Shown here: piece by piece, positions 2,139-14,115 of the stretch
How positions within the stretch are numbered: position 1 is the stretch's first letter
Layout: each line of letters begins with the position of its first letter
Source: an uncultured Desulfospira sp.
Lineage (GTDB): Bacteria > Desulfobacterota > Desulfobacteria > Desulfobacterales > Desulfobacteraceae
Reading direction: 5' to 3'
Assembly (NCBI GenBank): GCA_963663165.1
Contig: OY760175.1
Span: forward strand, 4,192,001-4,256,000
Length of the DNA stretch: 64,000 nt
Position numbers and translations under genes: made by a program
The notes under the pieces: model-generated
What the model was told of the DNA's origin: nothing
Seen by the model: the letters and a program-made list of their open reading frames with translations, nothing else
Databases searched by the model: none

Positions 2139-2212
2139 GCATTAATTGCAATTTTTGGGTATTATTTTACACAACTTGAACTACCCCCAGAAAGATATTG
2201 GATACCTACCAT

Positions 2213-3607
2213 ATGAATCCGGCAAAATCAACACACGAAAACGAAATCAAAAGATTTTGGGACAATTACATTAATCGTTTAGAACATGCTGGTATTAAAA
2301 GTAATGTTTCCAGGTGGTATGTGATCAGAGCCGAGCAGTATATCAAGGCTTTTCCGGATAAGCGTCTGGCCGATCATAACCCTGAGGACGTGGTCTCCTA
2401 CCTGGAGCAGCAGGGCCGGGCCGGCCGGATTCAGGACTGGCAGTTCCGGCAGCTGGTCGATGCTATACAGAATTTATTTTCCATGCTTGGCGTATCCTGG
2501 CTGTCGGATGTAGACTGGCAGTTCTGGATGGATTCAGCCGCGTCCCTGACAGAAGTTCATCCCACAGTTGCCGGCAGCCTTCCGGCTAAAGCAACCATTG
2601 AAAAATTATCCGGCCGAAAAGGCTCACAGCTTTCCGCTGTCCGCAAACTTCATGCAGATCTTCTGGAAAAGCTGCTGATCGTCTTGCGGACGAAGGGGTA
2701 TTCCATAAGAACCGAGCAGTCTTACGAATCCTGGGTAAGCCGTTTTATTGAGTTTTGCCAAAATCAGGACCCGGCCGGGCTTGGTAAGGTTGAAGTGGTC
2801 TCCTTTTTGCAACATCTGGCTGTTGGGCGGAATGTGGCGGAGAGTACCCAGAACCAGGCGTTGAATGCCCTTGTCTTTTTTTATGACAAGGTTTTGGAAC
2901 AGCCCCTGGGGGATCTTGGGGATTTTGTCCGGGTAAAACGCCCTAAACGGCGACCGGTTGTGCTGACCCGGATTGAAGTGGCAAAACTGATCGACCACAT
3001 GGAGGGCCGCCAGAAACTGATGGCCTCCCTGCTTTATGGCACCGGCATGCGGCTGATGGATTGTATCAGGCTCAGGGTCCAGGATATTGATTTTGGGTAT
3101 TATCAGATTGTGGTCAGGGACGGAAAAGGCAAAAAAGACCGGGTAGTTCCATTGCCGGAAGGGCTTGTCAGCGATCTTACGGCCCATCTTGAAAAAGTTC
3201 GTAAACTGCACGAGGCAGATTTGGAAAAAGGGTTTGGAGAGGTCTATCTACCCTATGCCTATGACCGCAAATCCCCCAAAGCGGCAAAGGAATGGGGATG
3301 GCAGTATGTGTTCCCCAGCGGACGGCTTTCCGTTGATCCAAGGAGTGGAAAAACACGCCGTCACCATATTCACGAAAATGGTCTTCAAAAAGCCGTGAAA
3401 AAAGCGGCGCAGCAGGCCCAGATTACGAAAAGGGTAAACTGCCACGCCCTTCGCCACAGTTTTGCCACCCATCTTCTGGAAAGCGGTTATGATATCCGTA
3501 CCGTGCAGGATCTGCTCGGCCATGCCAATGTTTCAACAACCATGATCTATACCCATGTGCTTAACCGGGGCGGGAGAGGCGTAAAAAGTCCCTTTGACGT
3601 GCTGTAA
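2213..3607 (+). CDS. intI: Integron integrase with N-terminal extension
   Basis: [28 protein letters not shown] and LGH..TTMIYTH motifs, plus the integron-specific insertion [21 protein letters not shown] at 2213 (TTG at 2198 is an alternative). Confidence 0.95.
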
Positions 3608-3935
3608 TTCGAAACTAAACAGCGGGTCGCCGCCACATTGAAAACCGTAAAAATTTTTGATATAAATCAGGACAGAGCCGGGACCTTTTCAAAGGGGATG
3701 GCAAAAGAGCGGGTTCTGGTCGTGCCGAATATGGAAGACGCTGTTAGAATCTGCGATATCGTCAGCTCAGTGACCGTTGGCCGGTCCCACCCGGTTTTTA
3801 AAAAAGATTTGCTGCAGACTATAACTATCTGAAAATATATTTATGTTTCGTTTTGGACGATGCCTTGGCCGGATAACCAGGGACAGTCCGGTTTCTATCT
3901 TTTATAGCAACCCCAATTTCATGGAGGAAAGACAG

Positions 3936-4910
3936 ATGAAACACATTTCAAAAGTGATGGTTGTTCTGGCCGCGGCAAGCCTTCTGTTTGCCGGACGGGC
4001 CATGGCTGTCGACAGAATCTTTTTCGGCATTGCCACCGGGGGTACCGGCGGCACCTATTACCCCCTGGGGGGGATGCTGGCCCAGATGATTTCCAACAAG
4101 GTGGTCATTAACGGCAAAAAACTGTCCGCCACCGCGGAAACCGGAAATGCGTCCGTGGCCAATGCCACCTTGCTGGGCAGAAAGGGGATTGAATCCGCCT
4201 TTGCCGGGGCTGATATCCTGAGTGCGGCTTACAAAGGCATTAAACAGTTTGACGGCAAAGAGCAAAAAAGCTTAAGGGCCTTGGGCGCGCTTTATCCTGA
4301 AACTGTACAGCTGGTGGTCCGGGGCAATGCCGGAATAACCAAATTTGAAGATCTCAAGGGCAAATCCATTTCCTCCGGGTCTCCCGGATCCGGCCAGTGG
4401 CAGCTGCTTGGTGATTTGCTCAATTGCTACGGCATGGACCGGAAAAACGATATAAAAGAGGATTACTCTTCTTTTGCCCAGTCGGTTGAAAAAATCAAAA
4501 ACGGCCGTCTGGACGCCTCTTTGATCACGGCCGGAACCCCTACGGCGTCTGTTGCAGAGCTGGCCGCCCATCATGATATCCAGATCATACCGTTGAGCGG
4601 ACCGGCTATTGAGGGCCTTCAGAAGGTTCAGCCCTGTTATGCCGGTTTTCTGCTGCCGGCCGGGACCTATAAAGGCCAGGATGAGGCGGTGAAGACCATT
4701 GCCGTCCGCGCCATCTGGGCTACCCATGACGAGCTGGATAAGGTGCTGGCCTATCACCTGGTCAAAGCCTTGTATGAAAATACAGACACCCTGGCCAAGG
4801 TTCATGTCAAAGGCAAGGATATCAGCCTTGAAACCGCCCTGGAATCGGTTTCCATTCCCCTGCATCCCGGCGCGGAACGGTACTATCGTGAAAAAGGCCT
4901 GATCGACTAA
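3936..4910 (+). CDS. TAXI-family TRAP transporter solute-binding subunit
   Basis: Signal peptide, IATGGTGGTYYPLG, LYPETVQ and IPLHPGAERYY motifs; GGAGG RBS before ATG 3936. Confidence 0.92.
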   Translation: MKHISKVMVVLAAASLLFAGRAMAVDRIFFGIATGGTGGTYYPLGGMLAQMISNKVVINGKKLSATAETGNASVANATLLGRKGIESAFAGADILSAAYKGIKQFDGKEQKSLRALGALYPETVQLVVRGNAGITKFEDLKGKSISSGSPGSGQWQLLGDLLNCYGMDRKNDIKEDYSSFAQSVEKIKNGRLDASLITAGTPTASVAELAAHHDIQIIPLSGPAIEGLQKVQPCYAGFLLPAGTYKGQDEAVKTIAVRAIWATHDELDKVLAYHLVKALYENTDTLAKVHVKGKDISLETALESVSIPLHPGAERYYREKGLID

Positions 4911-4911
4911 A

Positions 4912-5391
4912 ATGAAGCGCATGGCTGCAGGCCTCCCGGTTTTTCTGGCGGCTGCCTGCATCTGCATAGTTTCCTTCAGCCTGACCGCCGGAACCCTTGG
5001 CCCGAAATTAATGGTATCACAATTTCCCGGCGGCAAAGACCTTCACCAGATTAATCTGGACAAAGAAAAAGGGTTTTCTCTTTCCTTTATCCACTCGGTG
5101 TCCCAAACCCGGGTCACGGATATTTACCGGATTGAAGGAGACCGGATTATCCAGACCGCAGAACGGTTCCGGGCCCATGGCGCAGGGCTTCCCTCCCAGA
5201 CAGATGAGCCAGGCGTTACCCGCTGGGAAAAAAAGGGGGATGAGTTTGTTATCACCATGGAGCGGCCTGTTCCCCAAATAGTGATCCGGACCGATAAAAA
5301 TTATGAAAACCGGCTCATGGTCGGCCGCCGGGTGATCAACCTCAACCAATGGGAAGACCAGGCCCTGCGGCTGTATATTAAAACAGACTAA
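4912..5391 (+). CDS. DUF1850-like protein (TAXI-associated)
   Basis: FIHSVSQT and HGAGLP motifs; directly follows the TAXI gene. Confidence 0.8.
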   Translation: MKRMAAGLPVFLAAACICIVSFSLTAGTLGPKLMVSQFPGGKDLHQINLDKEKGFSLSFIHSVSQTRVTDIYRIEGDRIIQTAERFRAHGAGLPSQTDEPGVTRWEKKGDEFVITMERPVPQIVIRTDKNYENRLMVGRRVINLNQWEDQALRLYIKTD

Positions 5392-5465: not shown

Positions 5466-5528
5466 CAGGGCAATCGCATGTAAAAGAAAGCCATCTCTTC
5501 CGGAATTGAAAATAAGGATAATCTCCAA
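5466..5528 (+). repeat. Left part of a ~222-bp MITE-like palindromic repeat interrupted by the RIT element
   Basis: CAGGGCAATCGCATGTAA...ATAAGGATAATCTCCAA; inverted counterpart ends at 9811; the ATAAGG..CTCCAA part is collinear with 41659-41679 on the minus strand. Confidence 0.75.
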
Positions 5529-5633
5529 TTATGTAGCGTGTTTGATTATGTTGTGAGTTTTATTCATTTTTATTCAAAAAGATTTTTCAAATCTTTCATT
5601 TTATTCGTATAATTCCAAATCATATGCATAGAA

Positions 5634-5662
5634 AAAGCCCGGAGTAGCCCCTCCGGGCTTTG
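5634..5662. terminator. Hairpin in the RIT leader (terminator-like)
   Basis: AAAGCCCGGAG-TAGCCC-CTCCGGGCTTT perfect stem with A and T runs. Confidence 0.5.
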
Positions 5663-5756
5663 ATTGTGAACTCCCGTCGATAGCCGGAGAAGCCCACACA
5701 CACAGTTATATTTCTATATCATTTTCCGGTTATCTGCAATACCGGAAAAATCTAAA

Positions 5757-6143
5757 ATGCTTTTAATTCCAAATACATGCCGATGGTGCCATTTCGTATT
5801 TTTTGTTTGCAGGTTCTGCTGGAGAGGGCAGGCCTATTGTTGCAGGGACTGCCGTAAGGCCGGAATCCTCAGAAACAAAAGAGAAGCACAGCGACGATAC
5901 CGCCAGACCGAGAAGGGGAAAAGACGGCATCGGGAAGCCGAGAACCGGCGTCGGCATCGAAAAAAAATTCAAGAGACAAAAAACATGGATGATACAGCTT
6001 CCACAGTGCTGCCTGCTTGGTGTAGGACAATAATATTGTGGATTTTGTTTCAGATTCAGGGCCTTCCAATCAAACCATATTGTCAATTCTGCGGCTCTTC
6101 AGGTCAAGTCGTCACACAATTTCCCCGGCGGGGATATGGATAA
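5757..6143 (+). CDS. Cys-rich (putative Zn-binding), basic hypothetical protein in the RIT element
   Basis: CxxC-CxxC-CCxxC cluster, Arg-rich helix, C-terminal CQFC. Confidence 0.7.
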   Translation: MLLIPNTCRWCHFVFFVCRFCWRGQAYCCRDCRKAGILRNKREAQRRYRQTEKGKRRHREAENRRRHRKKIQETKNMDDTASTVLPAWCRTIILWILFQIQGLPIKPYCQFCGSSGQVVTQFPRRGYG

Positions 6144-6165
6144 ACGTAAAAACTGGAGGCGCGGC

Positions 6166-6576
6166 ATGGTAAAAAAAGAAATCCTGAACCCTTCAAGGGT
6201 GCGTTGTATCAAAGGAGGATTTAGTTTTATCCCCCATCGGTTTCTTACGGGTGGATTTTTGCGAGCATTAAGCCGGGACGAGTTGTTATTGTATTTTTTC
6301 CTGGTTCTGGCCGGTGACCGCAACGGATTAAGTTTTTACAGTTATGATAAAATATGCACCCTGCTAAAAATGCAACTGGACCAGTACATTGAAGCTCGGG
6401 ATGGATTGATGGAAAATGATCTGATTGCCTTTGACGGCACCATTTACCAGGTGCTTTCCTTACCGGCCAACCTTATACAATCTGCTGTACAAAAAAAATC
6501 TTCCCTGAACAGCCGTCAACCTGAATCAGTTGGAAAAATTTTGAGCAAACTGGTTATGGAGGCCGATCATGGTTGA
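6166..6576 (+). CDS. Putative helix-turn-helix protein in the RIT element
   Basis: GGAGG RBS; FSFIPHRF...LLLYFFLVLAGDRNGLSFYS pattern; overlaps the start of recombinase A. ATG 6136 is an alternative start. Confidence 0.7.
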   Translation: MVKKEILNPSRVRCIKGGFSFIPHRFLTGGFLRALSRDELLLYFFLVLAGDRNGLSFYSYDKICTLLKMQLDQYIEARDGLMENDLIAFDGTIYQVLSLPANLIQSAVQKKSSLNSRQPESVGKILSKLVMEADHG

Positions 6577-7486
6577 GCAGACACCCAAAAGTCCGCCCGG
6601 TTATGATCTGGATCAGATCCGCCGGGATTATCTGGACCATATGCTTAAAATCAAGGAAAGCTCTCCTTCTCAAACCTGTTGCAGGACCAAAATTATCAAA
6701 GCGTTTGACAGTTATCTGCAAACATCGGGAGTCTCACTGGTCAATATAAACATAGGGCATGTTGATGATTTTCTGGCAAGGTTCAATGCCCCATATGCAA
6801 AGAGTACCCAGGGGGTATACCGTTCCTGTTTTCGAGGCTTTTTGCACTACCTGTATAATGAACGGCATTTGATCCAACAGAATTTAGCCCCGCTTGTGAC
6901 CGGTCCGCCAATGTTTGCTCAAGTCAAGCCTCCTAAATTTTTAAGACCCGGTGAAGTCCGTCAGTTATTTGATCATTTGCCCTGTGCAACATCCAAAGAG
7001 CTTCGTGTCTATGCACAGGTTCACCTGGCTTATTATCTTGGATTGCGCCCCATTGAAATCAGCCGCCTTACTCTGGACGATATCTGTTTTGCCAAAGGAC
7101 TGCTAAACCTGGAAAACACAAAAAATGCAAAGCCCCTTCAATTGCCCATTCCCGATGAAGTTATCAAAGCAATCACCGCTTATATCGTTGGAGGCAGGCC
7201 TAAAAGTCAGTCTCGCTCTCTTTTTTTAACCAGCCATTGCCCACCTTACAGAGCTGTAAGTGCCTGGCTCACCAGGCACGATTTAACAAAGGCGTTGCGG
7301 GCTGCCGGTCTTCCCGGTACAGGATATTGGCTGCGCCACACCTTTGCACAAAACATGCTGGAAGCAGGTGCCGGCATTTTTGAAATCAAAGAAATGATGG
7401 GGCATTCCATCATTGATTCCACAAAAGTATATCTAAGTATCCACAAGGAATTGATGCGCCGGGTGTTGTTCGATGAAACCGTTTAA
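6569..7486 (+). CDS. Tyrosine recombinase, RIT subunit A
   Basis: LGLRPIE, TKNAK, YWLRH and MGH..TKVY motifs. Confidence 0.9.
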   Translation: MVEQTPKSPPGYDLDQIRRDYLDHMLKIKESSPSQTCCRTKIIKAFDSYLQTSGVSLVNINIGHVDDFLARFNAPYAKSTQGVYRSCFRGFLHYLYNERHLIQQNLAPLVTGPPMFAQVKPPKFLRPGEVRQLFDHLPCATSKELRVYAQVHLAYYLGLRPIEISRLTLDDICFAKGLLNLENTKNAKPLQLPIPDEVIKAITAYIVGGRPKSQSRSLFLTSHCPPYRAVSAWLTRHDLTKALRAAGLPGTGYWLRHTFAQNMLEAGAGIFEIKEMMGHSIIDSTKVYLSIHKELMRRVLFDETV

Positions 7487-8447
7487 AAGCTTTTTGGCCA
7501 CAGAGATGGAAAACTTTATTGTTTACCGGCAAGGACTGGGATACAGTTGCCATATGCTCCGGTGGGCCTTGCTTACCTTTGACGATTTTTTAATGAGGCA
7601 GCCGGATCTCTCAGACATTTGGATGCCCCATTTTTATATCACCTTTAAAAATGAGATTGGCCTTGAGCCCTCCGGCGTAGCCAGCATTCTAAATGTAGTT
7701 CGAGGCTTTTTTGATTATCTGAAACGGCAGCGGATAAATCTTGATAACCCTTTGAAAGATGTGACCGCTCCGGCCCGACGCACCTTCATCCCCTTTATAT
7801 TCTCACCGGAGCAGGTAGAAATGTTACTGGGGGTGGTATGCGGACGGATCCGGCAAACCCCTATGCGGTTCCTTAAAGATTACAGTGAATATCTGGTGAT
7901 CCTTCTGCTTGCCCGCTGTGGGCTGAGGATGAATGAACCCTTGCGCCTGAGATTGAAAAATTACCGGCCGGATGAAAAGACGATTTACATAGAGAAAACC
8001 AAGTTCAAAAAGGACCGTCTTATCCCTATTCCAAAATCAACTGCCATGCAGATTGACAACTATCTTTCAACCAGGGCCGCTTTAATTGAAAACGATATGA
8101 ATCCCTACCTGTTCATGGAGATAGGGGAAAACGGCTTGAACGATAACCGTATTCGCTCTGTTTTTCACGATGCTGTGCGTCAAATCGGGATCCGCCGCCC
8201 AAGGAAAATTATCGGCGACACGACCTTTGGGAAGCCCACTCCGCACTGTTTACGGCACTCTTTTGCCATTAACACCTTGAAGGCAGCCATTGCCCGGAAA
8301 CAATCACCCCGGAATGTGCTGCCGGTGCTTGCCGGCTATATGGGTCATGTTGAGTATAAATACACCATGGAATATTTGAAAGCAGTTGATGCTGAAAGCC
8401 GCGACAGCCTGTTCAAATTTACCACCGGCAGAAGGGATGAATCATGA
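7473..8447 (+). CDS. Tyrosine recombinase, RIT subunit B
   Basis: PFIFS, CGLR, TKFKKDRLIP, HCLRHSFA and LAGYMGH..TMEYL motifs; overlaps both neighbours. Confidence 0.92.
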   Translation: MKPFKSFLATEMENFIVYRQGLGYSCHMLRWALLTFDDFLMRQPDLSDIWMPHFYITFKNEIGLEPSGVASILNVVRGFFDYLKRQRINLDNPLKDVTAPARRTFIPFIFSPEQVEMLLGVVCGRIRQTPMRFLKDYSEYLVILLLARCGLRMNEPLRLRLKNYRPDEKTIYIEKTKFKKDRLIPIPKSTAMQIDNYLSTRAALIENDMNPYLFMEIGENGLNDNRIRSVFHDAVRQIGIRRPRKIIGDTTFGKPTPHCLRHSFAINTLKAAIARKQSPRNVLPVLAGYMGHVEYKYTMEYLKAVDAESRDSLFKFTTGRRDES

Positions 8448-9463
8448 ACCTGACCCGTTGCGTTGTTCAATTTTTTGACCAATACCTGCCTTATGTCAAA
8501 GGGTGCCGCCCCAATACGATCAAAAGTTACCGGGATACCATGCGCTTTTTTTTACCGTTTGCTGCCGAGTACCACAGCGTAAAGGTCAGTTCGCTCAATC
8601 TGGAACATATCACGGTAGAATTAATTTTGCAGTTTCTCAATGAGCTTGAATCCAAACGGTCCAACACGGCTAAAACCCGGAACCAGCGCCTGGCCGTTTT
8701 AAAGTCTTTTGCCAAAATGATCCGTTTTATTTATCCCGAGCAACAAAAACTGACCAATGCGATCCTTGATATTCCCCGGAAACGAAGCCAACACAAGTTG
8801 ATCGGATTTTTGTATCCCCAGGAGATCAATCAAATCCTTAATGCGGTCCAACTTAAAAGAAAGGACGGGTTCCGAGATTATACCCTTCTGTATCTATTAT
8901 ATGATACCGGTGCCAGGGCAACGGAAATCGCTACCCTTGAGATGGATTATTTTGATTATGAAAATCAAACTCTGGCGATTCTTGGGAAGGGTAACCGATA
9001 TCGACAAGTTCAGTTGCTTGGGAAAACAGTAGAGCTTATGCATCAGTATATTGAAGAACATCGCAATACGCCAATCCATCCGTTTAAAAAAAGGCTGTTC
9101 ATCAACCAAAGAGGAACAAGCTTGACCCGCCACGGTATCAACCGGATCTGTAAAAACTACCTTGAACAGGCTTTACCGGCAAAGCGGACAGCGACCATGC
9201 ACCCCGTCCATAGCTTCCGTCATTCGTGTGCCGTTCGAATGCTCTCAGAGGATCGGCCTTTATCTGAAATTAAGAATCGCTTGGGGCATTCTAATGTCAA
9301 ATCCACAATGGTTTACTTAAAGCTTGATCTAGGCCAGAAGCGACATTTACAAGAGAACTTCATCCAGTTCACCAAACAGCACCTGAAATCTGATCCGAAA
9401 ATTGAGGAGTTGATCCAGTGGGAAAACAAGCAAAACGTTCTTGAGTGGCTGGATAGTCTATAG
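8444..9463 (+). CDS. Tyrosine recombinase, RIT subunit C
   Basis: NTIKSYRD, TRNQRLA, YDTGARATE, GKG, HSFRH and LGH..TMVY motifs; ATGA overlap with subunit B. Confidence 0.92.
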   Translation: MNLTRCVVQFFDQYLPYVKGCRPNTIKSYRDTMRFFLPFAAEYHSVKVSSLNLEHITVELILQFLNELESKRSNTAKTRNQRLAVLKSFAKMIRFIYPEQQKLTNAILDIPRKRSQHKLIGFLYPQEINQILNAVQLKRKDGFRDYTLLYLLYDTGARATEIATLEMDYFDYENQTLAILGKGNRYRQVQLLGKTVELMHQYIEEHRNTPIHPFKKRLFINQRGTSLTRHGINRICKNYLEQALPAKRTATMHPVHSFRHSCAVRMLSEDRPLSEIKNRLGHSNVKSTMVYLKLDLGQKRHLQENFIQFTKQHLKSDPKIEELIQWENKQNVLEWLDSL

Positions 9464-9646
9464 ATCCTTACAGACTTCATCACCAGCACTCCTCAGGGCA
9501 AACTGTAGCTGTTTATTATGTTTAGTGATTTGTTGCAAATTTGTCATACCCTTGATAACCCACTGTTTATTTGAACGATTTTGACTTACGGCATTACGGC
9601 GCCCAAACCACGGTCAATCAAGGCTTCAGGACCGCTCGCAACATAA

Positions 9647-9811
9647 CTCCAAAATAATGGACTTGGGACTTGGGATATGGGACTTGGGGATTGCCGTATC
9701 CATGGCCTCCCCAAGTCCCAAGTCCCATATCCCAAGTCCCAATTTTATACATTATTATCCTTATCACCCAAATTGGCATCACCAGCAGACAAGTTACATG
9801 CGATCTCCCTG
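9647..9811 (+). repeat. Right part of the MITE-like heptamer-palindrome repeat
   Basis: (GGGACTT/GGGATAT)n - spacer - (AAGTCCC/ATATCCC)n hairpin, then TTACATGCGATCTCCCTG; homologous to 41500-41664 (minus). Confidence 0.85.
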
Positions 9812-9917: not shown

Positions 9918-11480
9918 GTGGAAGACCAGCCCCGGGAGCAGACAGACCCGGATCATGAAAAAGAGGTCCTATCGGATATTGGCCGCTGCATCAGGGTGCT
10001 GGAAACCCTGGCAGACCGGTCTGAACTTTTGGCAAAAATCTCCGAAGATGAGCGCATCGCCCTGGTGACCGCAGCCGGTAAAATATCCCGGCCGGACAGG
10101 GCTGAAATTAAAAAACGCAACAAGGACAAAAAACGGCAGATGCGCCTGGCTGTTGTGGGAAAAGAGCGTCAGGCCCGGGCGGCAACCGGTATCCGCAAGG
10201 CCCGGGAAGCCGCTGTGTTTACGGCACCGGCCCAGATTGAGGGCCCTGGTGTCCAGGGCCGTAATGATACCCGGCGCCTGGATTCTGCCCGCAACTGTTA
10301 TGTGTGCAAGGAAAAGTTCACAACCCTTCATCATTTTTATGACAGCATGTGTCCCAGGTGTGCGGCGTTCAATTACACCAAGCGATTCCAGACCGCGTCC
10401 CTTGCGGGGCAGGTGGCGGTCATCACAGGCTCCAGGCTCAAGATTGGGTACCAGGCCGCCCTGATGATGCTCCAGGCCGGGGCAAGGGTGATTGCCACCA
10501 CCCGGTTTCCCAAGGATTCGGCCTTAAGGTTCTCTAAAGAACCCGATTTTGGCCAGTGGGGCCACAGGCTGCATGTTTACGGGCTGGATTTGCGCCATAT
10601 CCCCAGTGTGGAACTGTTTTGCGATCATGTTCAGCAAACCTATCCGCGCCTGGATATCCTGATCAACAATGCGGCCCAGACCGTCCGGCGGCCGCCCGGA
10701 TTTTATGCCCATTTGATGGCCACGGAACAGCAGGATATCTCATCGCTGCCCCCGGAGGCGGCAAGTCTTTTAGGCCATTACCGGGACTGCCTGGCAGGGC
10801 TGGATACCGGCCCAACCCGGGGGGATGACCCTTCCCTGCCCGTTGCCTGGAACGGCGCTGCCCCGGGAATCGGGCTGCGGCAGTCGGCCCGGCTCTCCCA
10901 GGTTCCCTATTCCTATGACCAGAGCCTGGATGATCCCCGGGTGTTCCCGGAAAAGGCCCTGGATGCCGATCTCCAGCAGGTGGACCTTCGGAAGACCAAC
11001 TCCTGGCGGCTGAAGTTAGGGCAGATTGAGACCGCAGAGATGCTGGAAATTCAGCTGGTGAACAATGTGGCCCCCTTTGTCCTGTGCAACCGGCTGGCAG
11101 AGATGATGAAAGCTGACTTTACCGGCCAGAAACACATTGTCAATGTCTCGGCCATGGAAGGCAAATTCCTGAGGTTCAAGAAAGGCAGCCGCCACCCCCA
11201 TACCAATATGGCCAAGGCCGCGCTAAACATGCTCACCCACACGGCCGCCGAAGACCTTGCCAAATACGGGATTTATATGAATGCCGTGGATACCGGCTGG
11301 GTCACGGATGAGGACCCGGCACTCCTTGCCCGGCTCAAAGAGGAGCGCCACGACTTTCAGCCTCCCCTGGATATCGTGGATGGGGCGGCCCGGATCTGCG
11401 ACCCCTTTTTCCACGGCATTTTAACGGGAAAGCACTGGTGCGGAAAATTTTTAAAAGATTATTTTCCTATCGACTGGTAG
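9918..11480 (+). CDS. SDR-family oxidoreductase with N-terminal CxxC domain
   Basis: [24 protein letters not shown] and [10 protein letters not shown] motifs; CYVC and CPRC. Confidence 0.88.
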
Positions 11481-11599
11481 CAATCGATTTTTCATGCCAG
11501 GTCTGGTATTGTTTTTTCTGTCTTTCCCTCCACGATCAAAACAACCGGCCGGCTGCCGGTATCCGGCTGGCCCGTGAAAATTTAAGATGGAGACTTTTC

Positions 11600-12961
11600 A
11601 TGAATTTAAAATTTGTGTCAAAGACGGTACCGGTCCTGGCGGCGATTTTCTGGTTGTTTTCTGGACCGGCCCTGGCCAAGGTTGACCTGACCACCCTCAC
11701 CGACCGGGACCAGGTTCAGCTTACCATTTATAACAGTGCTGACCTGACCCTGGTCCGGGACACCCGGTTTCTCAACTTTAATCCCGGGATGAACCAGATC
11801 CAGTTTTCCTGGGCAGGGACAAGGATTGATCCCACGTCCCTGACCCTTGAGATTAAATCGCCTGACGCACCGGCCGCCGTGACCCAGATGAGCTTTCCTC
11901 CCCAGGCCAAAGACCTTGGCATCTGGTATATTCAGGCAGACAAGGCCTGCCGGGCCCAGGTGGACATCACCTATTTTACCTCCGGGATTTCATGGCAGGC
12001 CTTTTATACAGCGGTGATGTCGGAAGACGAAACCGCCATGGGGTTAAAGGGGTATGTCCGGGTCAACAACCAGTCCGGGGAGGATTATCCCAATGCAAAG
12101 ACCCGCCTGGTGGTGGGGAAAATCAATCTGCTGGACGAAATTGCTTTTTTGGCCCAGCGCACCTATCCATACGGCGCACCGGAAAAACCGGTTCCGGTAC
12201 AGCAGGTCCGGGCCGCCTACGCCAAAGCGGCCCGGATGATGGAGGCGCTCCCGTCTGTGGGCATGGACAGCGAAGAGATCGCGGCCCGGCCAAAGGAGAT
12301 TGTCAAACAGGGGTTGTCCGAGTATTTCCTGTATACGGTTGAGGGACGGGAAACCATCCCCAGCGGGTGGGCCAAGCAGCTGCTCTCCTTTGATGCCCCC
12401 AGGGTGGCGGTGGAAAATGTCTACCAGTATGAAGAAGAAAGGTATGGCGACCAGGTGGTCCGCAAACTCAAGTTTACCAACGATAAACCATCCGGGCTTG
12501 GGGCCGTCCCCCTGCCGGCCGGAGAGGTGAGCGTGTATCAATCCGTGGACCGCCAGGGCGGAATGGCCTTTGCCGGGTCTGCTCCGATGAAATATCTGTC
12601 TGTGGGCAAACCCTCGGAACTTGATTTGGGGCCGTCACAGCGGGTATCGGTCAAGCCTGTGGTCATGGGGTATGTGAAGAAACATCTCATCTTTGATGAA
12701 GAAAAAGATTTGTCCGGGTTTGACGAGGTCCGGGATATGGAAATCAAAACCGCCAACTTTTCAGACACCAAAGCCCGGATCGAGATTACCCGGAATATGG
12801 GAAATCCCCATTTTAAGCTGGACAAGATATCTTTTAAGGGGAAATTTGAAAAAATCGACCAGGACAGCTTTAAATTTGAACTGCTGCTGGATCCGGGTCA
12901 AAAGGAGACCATTCGGTATCAGCTAACCCGTTTTGCAGGAGAAAGAAAATGGCAGCAGTAA
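11600..12961 (+). CDS. DUF4139-domain exported protein
   Basis: Signal peptide, QLTIYNSADLTLVRD, GISWQAFY and VNNQSGEDY motifs; GGAG RBS before ATG 11600. Confidence 0.8.
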   Translation: MNLKFVSKTVPVLAAIFWLFSGPALAKVDLTTLTDRDQVQLTIYNSADLTLVRDTRFLNFNPGMNQIQFSWAGTRIDPTSLTLEIKSPDAPAAVTQMSFPPQAKDLGIWYIQADKACRAQVDITYFTSGISWQAFYTAVMSEDETAMGLKGYVRVNNQSGEDYPNAKTRLVVGKINLLDEIAFLAQRTYPYGAPEKPVPVQQVRAAYAKAARMMEALPSVGMDSEEIAARPKEIVKQGLSEYFLYTVEGRETIPSGWAKQLLSFDAPRVAVENVYQYEEERYGDQVVRKLKFTNDKPSGLGAVPLPAGEVSVYQSVDRQGGMAFAGSAPMKYLSVGKPSELDLGPSQRVSVKPVVMGYVKKHLIFDEEKDLSGFDEVRDMEIKTANFSDTKARIEITRNMGNPHFKLDKISFKGKFEKIDQDSFKFELLLDPGQKETIRYQLTRFAGERKWQQ

Positions 12962-14115
12962 GATTACCGTTCACGGCCCCCGTCATTACCGGCTTAGGGG
13001 TGTTTCTGGCCCTTTGCCTGATCCTGTGCCCGCCCGTTTTCCGGATTTGCCAGGCCAGGACCAGCCTGGTTTCCCTGCCGGCCAGGGATCAGGTGGTGGT
13101 CCGCCTCACCGGCGGCCATGCGGCCCTGGTTCAGGAAAAGCGGACCTTGAGCCTTAAAAAGGGGCGCAATGAAATTGACTTTTCCTGGCAGAACGTGGCC
13201 ATTGACCCGGACTCCATCCTGCTTGAACCTGTGGGCGGCAGCACCACGTTGCTGTCGGTCTCTTTTCCGCCGGGGGAATCCGCCCTGGTGTGGGAGGTTC
13301 ACAGCAAGGCCGATACATCCCAGCCCGTGGTGATTTCCTATCTTCTTGAGGGGCTGGACAGCCTGGTCACCTACGAAGCTACGGCAGACGCCGGTGAAAA
13401 GGCCATCCGGCTGAAATCCCACCTGATCTTACGCAATTTTTCAGGAGAGGATTTTGCCCCGGCCACCATCTGGCTCAACCCGGCCACGTCGTTTCCCACA
13501 GAGTCCCGGAACTTTGAAACCCGGAAAATCCTCTATTTTGACAAGGCCGGCATTCCCGTGACCAAAGTGTATACCTGGGATTCGGCCATCATGCCCCATG
13601 ACCCTGAAAAGGAAAAAACCGCCGTGGGAATCCCTGCCGGGTACAAGCTTGAGAATACAACGGCAGGCGGTTTGGGGTTTGCCGATCTGATTCACGGAAA
13701 GGTCCGGCTGTACCAGGAAGATTTAAGCCAAACCACCATTTTTTCAGGCGAGGATATGGCCCGGTTTGTGCCCAGAGGGGATAAGCTTATCCTTGAAACC
13801 GGAAAAACCCGGGACGTTATCGTTGCCAAACACCGGATGGACAGCGAGCGGACCCATATCCGCCGGAACGACAGCGGCAAAATCCAGGTTTATGACGAAA
13901 TCGTCAAAGCCCGGTTCACCATTGAAAACACAAAGGAGAGCCCCGTTGTCCTGACCCTGAAAGATTATATTGAAGGCCAGTGGGAGCCGGTTAAAATGGG
14001 CGCTGAATACCGCAAAGAGGATTACCGGACCCTGGTGTTTGAGATCGCCCTGGCCCCGGGGGAGAAAAAGACCCTGGATTTAGCTATGACCACAAAATTC
14101 AGTTGGATTTTGTAG
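12949..14115 (+). CDS. DUF4139-domain exported protein, 3' end replaced by IS sequence
   Basis: Paralogue of the upstream gene (IDFSW..IDPDS, NFSGEDF). The last residues AMTTKFSWIL are read from the IS end; the native tail lies at 16840-16891. Confidence 0.8.
   Translation: MAAVRLPFTAPVITGLGVFLALCLILCPPVFRICQARTSLVSLPARDQVVVRLTGGHAALVQEKRTLSLKKGRNEIDFSWQNVAIDPDSILLEPVGGSTTLLSVSFPPGESALVWEVHSKADTSQPVVISYLLEGLDSLVTYEATADAGEKAIRLKSHLILRNFSGEDFAPATIWLNPATSFPTESRNFETRKILYFDKAGIPVTKVYTWDSAIMPHDPEKEKTAVGIPAGYKLENTTAGGLGFADLIHGKVRLYQEDLSQTTIFSGEDMARFVPRGDKLILETGKTRDVIVAKHRMDSERTHIRRNDSGKIQVYDEIVKARFTIENTKESPVVLTLKDYIEGQWEPVKMGAEYRKEDYRTLVFEIALAPGEKKTLDLAMTTKFSWIL

Follow-up and report, generated by a model that had tools for sequence, protein, structure and literature searches.

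What do two small genes of other kinds do inside the ends of an element that carries three tyrosine recombinases? The question is raised by a RIT-type element in a 64,000-nucleotide stretch of contig OY760175.1 from an uncultured Desulfospira sp. (hereafter, the window), for which an initial sequence-only reading had described a five-gene recombinase module with a shared role in regulation, directionality or target selection. On comparative evidence, we interpret the element as a RIT variant with a previously undescribed exchangeable control module. The two genes, open reading frames (ORFs) 1 and 2, appear to fill two swappable slots rather than to form a fixed pair. Together with direct repeats at the left end and a structured leader, they would form a chemistry-independent cassette that controls expression and the left end, a reading that we favor with modest confidence.

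The ends of the element were fixed by comparing genomic copies, which places it at 5529–9646 of the window (4,118 bp). Eight copies of the whole unit are present in the genome, each of 4,118 bp with sharp ends and with five to six differences relative to the window copy. Genome comparison, i.e., sequence alone, demonstrates mobility as a unit by copies at eight distinct sites, exact ends and the presence of empty target sites; the element has recently multiplied. ORF1 and ORF2 lie inside these boundaries, as had been claimed, and the following features make up the element and its immediate borders.

5523..5528, no strand: left 6-bp core CTCCAA, also present at the right end; probable strand-exchange (overlap) region
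5529..5557, plus strand: left end with tandem TTATGT(A/T)G repeats 17 bp apart; likely recombinase sites; boundary common to the eight copies, tandem also in relatives
5757..6143, plus strand: ORF1, slot-1 gene, 128 amino acids (aa); predicted treble-clef-like zinc finger, long Arg/Lys helix and C-terminal CxxC
6166..6576 (open frame from 6136), plus strand: ORF2, slot-2 gene; predicted winged helix
6569..7486, plus strand: RitA-type tyrosine recombinase, short form, 305 aa; Phage_integrase match
7473..8447, plus strand: RitB-type tyrosine recombinase; catalytic motifs intact
8444..9463, plus strand: RitC-type tyrosine recombinase; family match, catalytic Tyr present
9635..9646, plus strand: right end CTCGCAACATAA; repeats the left end in inverted orientation but lacks the TWATTC array described below
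9647..9652, no strand: right 6-bp core, followed by the palindromic genome-wide repeat that is the insertion target

To avoid selecting on the accessory genes, we anchored a survey of 400 genomes of the order on RitA. Matches were found in 34 genomes; 48 of the 58 non-self places were fetched, and 38 relatives were left after removal of nine with less than 1,150 nt upstream and one duplicate. Slot 1 held an in-line gene in 36 of them, ORF1 on the opposite strand in one, and no gene in one with a broken RitA; the slot-1 gene was Cys-rich in 37 of the 38. Slot 2 was occupied by ORF2 (29 relatives) or by a stand-alone CHC2 primase finger that scores above the Pfam cut-off (five relatives), or was empty (four relatives). 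Both slots are thus exchanged, and the exact in-line pair of ORF1 and ORF2 occurred in only seven of the 38 relatives, so that the earlier idea of a fixed five-gene module is not supported. The neighborhood test that had been proposed, a search for close relatives without these genes, gave a divided answer: three of the 38 lack slot 2 but keep slot 1.

Exchange also extends across element types within this genome. A second RIT family combines a different Cys protein with ORF2 (four copies), and a third RIT family combines a third Cys protein with the CHC2 primase-type finger (four copies). An IS21-type family carries ORF1, ORF2, a ParB-like gene, IstA and IstB (five copies). A DDE family carries ORF1, the CHC2 finger, a 184-aa ORF, a DDE-type integrase and an AAA ATPase (six copies; the integrase label is our own sequence reading, and Pfam gave no integrase match). 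The earlier statement that similar small proteins occur beside IS21/DDE-type elements is supported. Among 80 ORF2-anchored loci, several of which are copies from one genome, the gene following ORF2 was RitA in 60 and IstA in 17 (a fused RIT, an IstA fragment and an unresolved gene account for one locus each), supporting the view that these genes travel with different recombination chemistries; a Cys-rich gene preceded ORF2 in 79. In the ORF1-anchored tally, seven of 80 loci were too short and one was a duplicate. Thirty-eight plasmid records contained relatives of ORF1; all seven that were fetched are proteobacterial and have ORF1 directly before istA, without ORF2. Within 4 kb of four canonical plasmid RITs, neither these accessory genes nor the leader were found.

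Phylogenies revealed the extent of the exchange. On a 97-row RitA tree (FastTree), 27 changes of the slot-1 label were counted, some of them between near-identical RitAs, and the starred branches force at least eight slot-1 changes for ORF1. On the 86-row ORF2 tree, built from a short alignment and with few starred branches, RIT and IS21 partners interleave with eight changes, and in 12 of 14 cases the ORF2s of IS21 elements are 70–78% identical over the core to those of RITs. Ratios of nonsynonymous to synonymous substitution (dN/dS; 23–36 pairs from nine close loci) were 0.18 for ORF1, 0.19 for ORF2 and 0.11–0.18 for RitA–C, i.e., both accessory genes are under purifying selection like the recombinases.

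Several observations concern the slots themselves. Variants of the slot-1 type Z2 are mutually related (hhalign 86–97%), and Z3 versus Z4 reached 23%; between ORF1 and the other slot-1 families, homology was not supported (hhalign probability 1.5% or less). In locus L221 (G625, five matches), the ORF1 homolog is encoded on the opposite strand within the left end, lacks the leader and lies upstream of ORF2 and RitABC. A single protein (P0298, 245 aa) is a fusion of ORF1 and the CHC2 finger. In the DDE family (family E; 1369–1920 of locus L228), the 184-aa gene that separates slot 2 from the DDE-type integrase is unclassified; in locus L241, it follows ORF1 and ORF2 instead of ORF1 and the CHC2 finger. 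Three RITs with a Z3-type slot 1 (L229, which is the left end of family B, L195 and L218) carry a small cargo gene on the opposite strand between the left end and slot 1, which we take to encode a SEC-C-like motif. Proteobacterial IS21s with ORF1 carry a conserved gene of about 65–70 aa after istB.

The left end contains a second component of the putative cassette, a direct-repeat array that in the window occupies the stretch from the recombinase sites to a predicted −10 box.

5560..5615, plus strand: four TWATTC direct repeats (at 5560, 5570, 5601 and 5610); predicted ORF2 binding sites, the last overlapping the predicted −10 box
5584..5613, plus strand: predicted sigma-70-type promoter of the five-gene operon; consensus match 10/12 (weak alone: the whole region holds 11 such sites versus 6.9 ± 2.6 by chance)

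In 60 dereplicated RITs with the same, GGF(S/A)FIPH-type ORF2, TWATTC averaged 2.9 occurrences per 150 nt, compared to 0.03 for the reverse strand, 0.20 beyond the end and 0.29 for shuffled sequences (maximum 0.47). At least two copies were present in 51 of the 60, with spacing peaks at 9–11 and 38–41 bp, and the repeats start 7–8 bp from the recombinase sites in 35. The motif is confined to one end: at the right ends of 37 relatives, it averaged 0.03 on the forward and 0.22 on the reverse strand. All six scored IS21s with this ORF2 type have three to four copies; in ORF2-bearing IS21s, the motif forms part of the terminal repeats at the left end and is lacking from those at the right end. Other slot-2 proteins come with other repeats. 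A divergent ORF2 is accompanied by two to six TTCTT repeats in all ten anchored loci of RIT, IS21 and DDE type, and the CHC2 finger by TACCCCGC-type repeats in all five elements with a visible left end (four RIT, one DDE); neither motif was detected at the left end of the two scored IS21s without a slot-2 gene. Left-end anchoring failed for five of the 27 loci in this comparison of IS21, DDE, divergent-ORF2 and CHC2 loci. The repeat sequence thus tracks the type of slot-2 protein and not the type of recombinase. Mainly on the basis of this co-variation, we infer that slot-2 proteins bind the left end.

The third component is a leader of about 125 nt, which precedes 101 of 108 ORF1 genes by a strict pattern and four more by inspection. 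Three predicted features were read in the window.

5630..5705, minus strand: predicted antisense RNA of about 75 nt; stem-loop B, then terminator hairpin A (5634–5661) and U tail
5679..5749, plus strand: predicted two-state mRNA switch; pairing of 5679–5691 with 5722–5734 leaves the start region open, pairing of 5722–5730 with 5741–5749 closes the ribosome-binding region
5711..5739, minus strand: predicted antisense promoter; −35 TTGCAA at 5734–5739, 17-bp spacer, −10 at 5711–5716

The conservation of these features was assessed in an alignment of 48 leaders. The T, T and G of the antisense −35 box are kept in 48, 47 and 48 leaders, the T and A of the −10 box in 47 and 46, and the spacer is free of gaps. 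Hairpin A shows both-side changes at four of nine pairs, and its U tail counts 5.6 of eight positions on the minus strand compared to 3.4 on the plus strand; the predicted antisense RNA folds at z = −4.6. In the open helix, the 5′ arm of hairpin C pairs with the loop and 3′ arm of B. This helix is paired in 86.9% of cells, with both-side changes at nine of 15 pairs (none of 500 shuffles was as high), and its one-side changes are G-U on the plus strand. The closed helix, hairpin C over GGAG on the plus strand, is paired in 92.9% and shows a wobble pattern of UG (32), CG (13) and UA (3). Both states differ by 0.2 kcal/mol in the window. By shuffle z-scores, hairpin C prefers the plus strand in 43 of the 48 leaders and hairpin B the minus strand in 37. 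Cognate B:C duplexes average −21.7 kcal/mol versus −19.0 kcal/mol for non-cognate ones, a difference reached in none of 10,000 permutations. The three ORF1 families of this genome carry different B loops, as expected of specificity groups.

A covariance model of the leader found full-length matches in this genome only at the 19 ORF1 copies, as expected by construction, and no other full-length match among the 150 of 2,137 candidates scored. In 149 other genomes, 11 of the 12 strong matches fetched lie directly before ORF1 (two of these 11 belonged to the training set) and one is a truncated leader; four weak matches elsewhere are terminators only. Among 81 test loci, the model matched three, all ORF1-bearing. 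Rfam contained no family at threshold, the sar match at 5630–5697 scoring 23.3 bits (threshold 43, E-value 0.63). We regard the leader and its predicted antisense RNA as a candidate family of antisense RNAs that is not represented in Rfam. In five proteobacterial IS21s (L171, L261, L263, L264 and L265), another conserved hairpin leader, with an ACACCG...AAAC(C/T)G(C/G)CAAG...GGTGTC-like motif, lies about 60–140 nt before ORF1.

The proteins encoded in the two slots belong to large families without a name. The family of ORF1 comprises 2,854 representatives at 50% clustering, and nothing above threshold was found for it in Pfam, NCBIfam, PDB sequences, PHROGs or the ESM Atlas. The description as a 128-aa Cys-rich, Arg-rich protein was accurate: eight cysteines (Cys8/11/18/21/28/32/109/112) and the Arg-rich stretch are conserved. 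The sequence contains the CxxC...Cx3C pattern (C8/C11/C28/C32), and the top two fold matches of the structure model (pLDDT 81.7) by VIA, both treble clefs and both weak, were YacG at Z 3.3, followed by an FCS finger at Z 2.9. Matches to ribosomal L35 and NinG were rejected, being below curated cut-offs and likely driven by composition. For ORF2, 7,342 homologs were counted, with no match in PDB sequences and no named family above cut-off in Pfam, NCBIfam, PHROGs or the ESM Atlas. For the earlier label of an HTH-like protein, the basis is a model that resembles winged helices at low confidence (pLDDT 60) and a match to HTH_36 that stays below the cut-off (E-value 0.007). Foldseek returned no significant match for either protein; its top rows for ORF2 (4pql, 4pt7, 5kbj and 4pta) had E-values of 0.1–0.6. 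The top VIA row for ORF2, 5wtn (Z 6.8), was tied with generic winged helices, and the best fold rows, weak and non-significant, were the replication proteins RepA_N, DnaB and DnaD. The most likely start of ORF2 is at 6166 (136 aa), which fits GGAGG at 6155–6159 and a 136-aa database product, and with this start ORF1 and ORF2 probably do not overlap. Both genes are co-directional with and closely spaced to RitA–C, and from this spacing the proposed single operon is deduced. In one locus (L226, 1870–3462), ORF2 and RitA are fused in frame to a 530-aa protein.

How might the three components work together? In our model of binding, transcription and the sign of regulation, the cassette would set the amount of recombinase and the availability of the left end, whatever the recombination chemistry. 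The TWATTC repeats lie next to the recombinase sites and extend into the predicted promoter of the operon; by binding them, ORF2 would act as both an autorepressor and a gatekeeper of the left end. The cis-encoded antisense RNA would pair with leader loop B and block the open helix, keeping the ribosome-binding region closed and ORF1 translation off, so that more element copies would lead to more repression. For ORF1, we propose positive action, exerted either on nucleic acid or on a target in the host. By analogy with the logic of antisense control in mobile elements, it is likely a positively acting nucleic-acid-binding factor, and its occurrence with either slot-2 protein or with none points in the same direction. 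Insertion sequences are usually viewed as a transposase plus ends. If our model is true, a regulatory front end in which a structured RNA accompanies repeats specific to the protein, and which is swapped between tyrosine-recombinase and DDE elements, would represent a new layer of modularity, and would account for the large family of unannotated ORFs before istA.

Several points weigh against this model. Shared inheritance as neighbors could by itself make repeats and slot-2 genes co-vary, and TTCTT occurs on both strands in two loci with a divergent ORF2. Three ORF1 genes have no such leader (L221, L170 and L171). The last T of the antisense −10 box is missing in 40 of the 48 leaders and kept in eight. 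Hairpin B has no RNAalifold consensus on either strand of the alignment, its evidence being per sequence only, and the B:C duplex is better on the plus strand in 30 leaders and on the minus strand in 18, a difference so slight that repeated DNA binding sites are possible instead. The open state lies within 3 kcal/mol of the minimum in only ten leaders, and the window copy reads GGAAA, i.e., a degenerate ribosome-binding sequence, where 45 of the 48 have GGAG. Furthermore, the sequences compared are related, so that the permutation and shuffle controls overstate. Finally, the fold matches of both proteins are weak.

Other explanations were considered as well. One is a mini replication-start module, in which ORF2 or the primase-type finger would bind the iteron-like repeats and recruit host helicase or primase to the left end, the element being copied out as a circle. 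More broadly, unrelated transposons might share a front end resembling a plasmid mini-replicon, in which copy number is sensed by an antisense RNA, a zinc-finger protein serves as activator, and a winged helix of initiator type, or a primase finger, brings its own iterons. Copy-out would then be driven by an exchangeable element-encoded initiator via local left-end replication, not by host restart functions alone. We consider both forms unlikely. A circle copy-out step could be common to RIT and IS21 chemistries, the repeats are oriented, helically spaced and present at one end only, the antisense logic matches pSK41 rep control, and two of the eight copies have unlike cores, as in the copy-out elements treated in the accessible text of PMC10214605. 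The RepA_N, DnaB and DnaD rows for ORF2 fit an initiator but are non-significant and tied with generic regulators; the gene that can replace ORF2 in slot 2 encodes a primase finger scoring above the cut-off of Pfam, but the element encodes neither a primase catalytic domain nor a helicase. Slot 2 is moreover absent in three of the 38 RITs and, by annotation tables, in all seven proteobacterial IS21 loci with ORF1, and the antisense switch precedes ORF1 while ORF2 has its own ribosome-binding site. It is slightly less probable again that leader and ORF1 form a type I-like toxin with an antisense antitoxin, or a YacG-like host inhibitor, that stabilizes the element or conditions the host, with ORF2 as an unrelated repressor. 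Type I systems typically combine an antisense RNA with closure of the ribosome-binding site, and both are predicted here. ORF1, however, is not a short hydrophobic peptide, unrelated zinc proteins occupy slot 1 without the leader RNA, and ORF1 is almost always the first gene ahead of mobility genes. That it occurs with ORF2, the CHC2 finger or neither suggests that no specific partner is needed, which would suit an inhibitor; the top fold row, the gyrase inhibitor YacG, spans the finger only.

Two further explanations correspond to roles raised by the sequence-only reading, of which regulation is the best supported, while directionality and target selection are unsupported. ORF1 and/or ORF2 could be cofactors of recombination that make contact with the recombinase and determine directionality, in the manner of Xis, Tn554 TnpC, Srap or GinD. 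In SEs and GInts, small auxiliary proteins are indispensable according to the accessible part of PMC10214605, and the repeats begin close to the recombinase sites in the 35 loci mentioned above. What speaks against a recombinase-specific factor is the 27 slot-1 changes on the RitA tree, with switches between near-identical RitAs, and the fact that the same proteins serve tyrosine recombinases and DDE transposases, with the ORF2 core identity given above. The ORF2–RitA fusion would suit a cofactor but was seen at one locus, and we rate this explanation as about as improbable as a toxin or inhibitor. A purely DNA-architectural role at the left end may apply and overlaps with the control cassette. 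Very unlikely, in our view, is a TniQ/TnsD-like selection of the insertion target, even with the predicted zinc binding of ORF1 and the insertion of six of the eight copies at one site of a genomic repeat. Three ORF1-bearing families of this genome use unlike targets, as the IS21 and DDE families insert at unrelated sites with variable 5–6-bp duplications; RITs with ORF1 and ORF2 have many different cores, and the target resembles a recombinase half-site plus core.

Control by cis-encoded antisense RNA has precedents in mobile elements. In IS10, RNA-OUT limits translation and acts on the transposase start. In IS200, as described in the accessible part of PMC4513863, a cis-encoded antisense RNA (art200) and mRNA structure limit translation, an analogy to the cassette; art200 also acts on the transposase start, whereas the switch described here is tied to an accessory gene that moves among RIT, IS21 and DDE/ATPase elements. 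The closest likeness in logic is to RNAI/rep of pSK41 (PMC5703833, accessible part), where a short two-hairpin antisense RNA targets a leader upstream of the start and is predicted to induce a hairpin that closes the ribosome-binding site. Here, the corresponding function is predicted, the controlled gene is a zinc-finger ORF instead of the initiator, and the context is a transposable element; pSK41 is a RepA_N replicon, and RepA_N domains were among the weak best fold rows of ORF2. SEs, GInts and Tn554 likewise combine several recombinases with one small additional protein, and their 6-bp core may be unlike at the two ends (PMC10214605, accessible part). However, their auxiliary gene (Srap, GinD or TnpC) is the last in the operon and family-specific, whereas the two genes described here head the operon, can be exchanged and also occur in DDE transposons. 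In the IS21 family (IstA and IstB), this cassette also precedes istA, both in genomes of the Desulfobacterales type and in Alpha-, Beta- and Gammaproteobacteria; the family differs in its chemistry, and the proteobacterial members mostly have ORF1 alone, usually unannotated, with a different leader. Our literature search returned no description of the accessory genes, cassette or leader; Ricker et al. 2013 (Plasmid), ISfinder and supplements were outside its reach and may mention such ORFs.

The recombinase trio itself supports the assignment to RITs. Canonical RITs consist of the trio and inverted repeats of 28–34 bp in about 3.5 kb, with the archetype in Cupriavidus metallidurans CH34 (accessible parts of PMC3414803, PMC10214605 and PMC8138268), and their mechanism and target specificity are described as untested in the available sections of PMC10214605 and PMC5737581. 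Like these, the window element has three adjacent, co-directional and overlapping tyrosine recombinases in the order A-B-C, all with the catalytic tyrosine, is multicopy and has inverted ends. The genes overlap by 14 and 4 nt, compared to 4–8 nt given as typical in the accessible text of PMC3414803. The three genes of the canonical plasmid RITs L173, L174 and L176 score best against RitA, RitB and RitC of the window in order (73–124 bits), and RitB is about 30% identical to the middle gene of canonical plasmid RITs. RitA contains the catalytic R, R-H and H...Y, with Tyr replacing the first His of HxxR. According to the accessible part of PMC8138268, RitA has two core-binding domains and RitC an extra C-terminal helix. 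RitC of the window runs about 45 aa beyond the integrase domain, and RitA, judged by length only, is a short form (305 aa) such as is found in 26 of 105 scored loci, compared to the long form in 79. These short forms occur in several branches, apparently without the first core-binding domain. The element departs from the canonical form in its terminal inverted repeat of only about 12 bp, its length of 4,118 bp, its five genes, and the repeat array and structured leader inside the left end. As trio, order and catalytic residues agree, but size, ends and gene content do not, we filed it as a RIT variant. A RitB search across the phylum matched in only two of 300 other genomes, and a RitC scan of viral contigs gave no match.

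Regarding ends and insertion sites, the terminal inverted repeat matches at ten of 12 positions, and the left end has a second copy in tandem. Both cores are CTCCAA in six of the eight copies. The copies with unlike left and right cores (genome positions 5568769 and 6121845; a family B copy at 2717912 behaves likewise) resemble the coupling or fingerprint sequences of SEs and Tn554. The six copies at a single position of the genome-wide palindromic repeat are complemented by one-core empty sites in this repeat, 25 of which match the target pattern, three near-exactly. A circle junction was found neither in the assembly nor end-to-end in contigs of four DNA runs; contigs drop rare forms, so that this is no evidence either way. 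Because its ends are exact and both its 6-bp cores and its empty sites have been identified in addition to eight recent copies, assays of junctions and donor fate can be designed directly for this element.

The palindromic repeat, at 9653–9760 of the window and genome-wide, is of the GGACTTGGGA type, has 122 motif matches in the genome and may be a non-autonomous mobile repeat. Another copy of the element (genome position 5588617) is inserted in an attC-like site of an integron cassette. The window itself contains an integron integrase at 2198–3607 (above the TIGR02249 cut-off) and, divergent from it, an array of uncharacterized ORFs (82–600, 749–1150 and 1328–1963) that are separated by attC-like repeats at about 6–74, 676–740 and 1214–1281. 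The host flanks of the element (3843–5391 and 9918–14115) encode an NMT1-like solute receptor together with a DUF1850 protein, a short-chain dehydrogenase with a long N-terminal extension, and two DUF4139-like genes.

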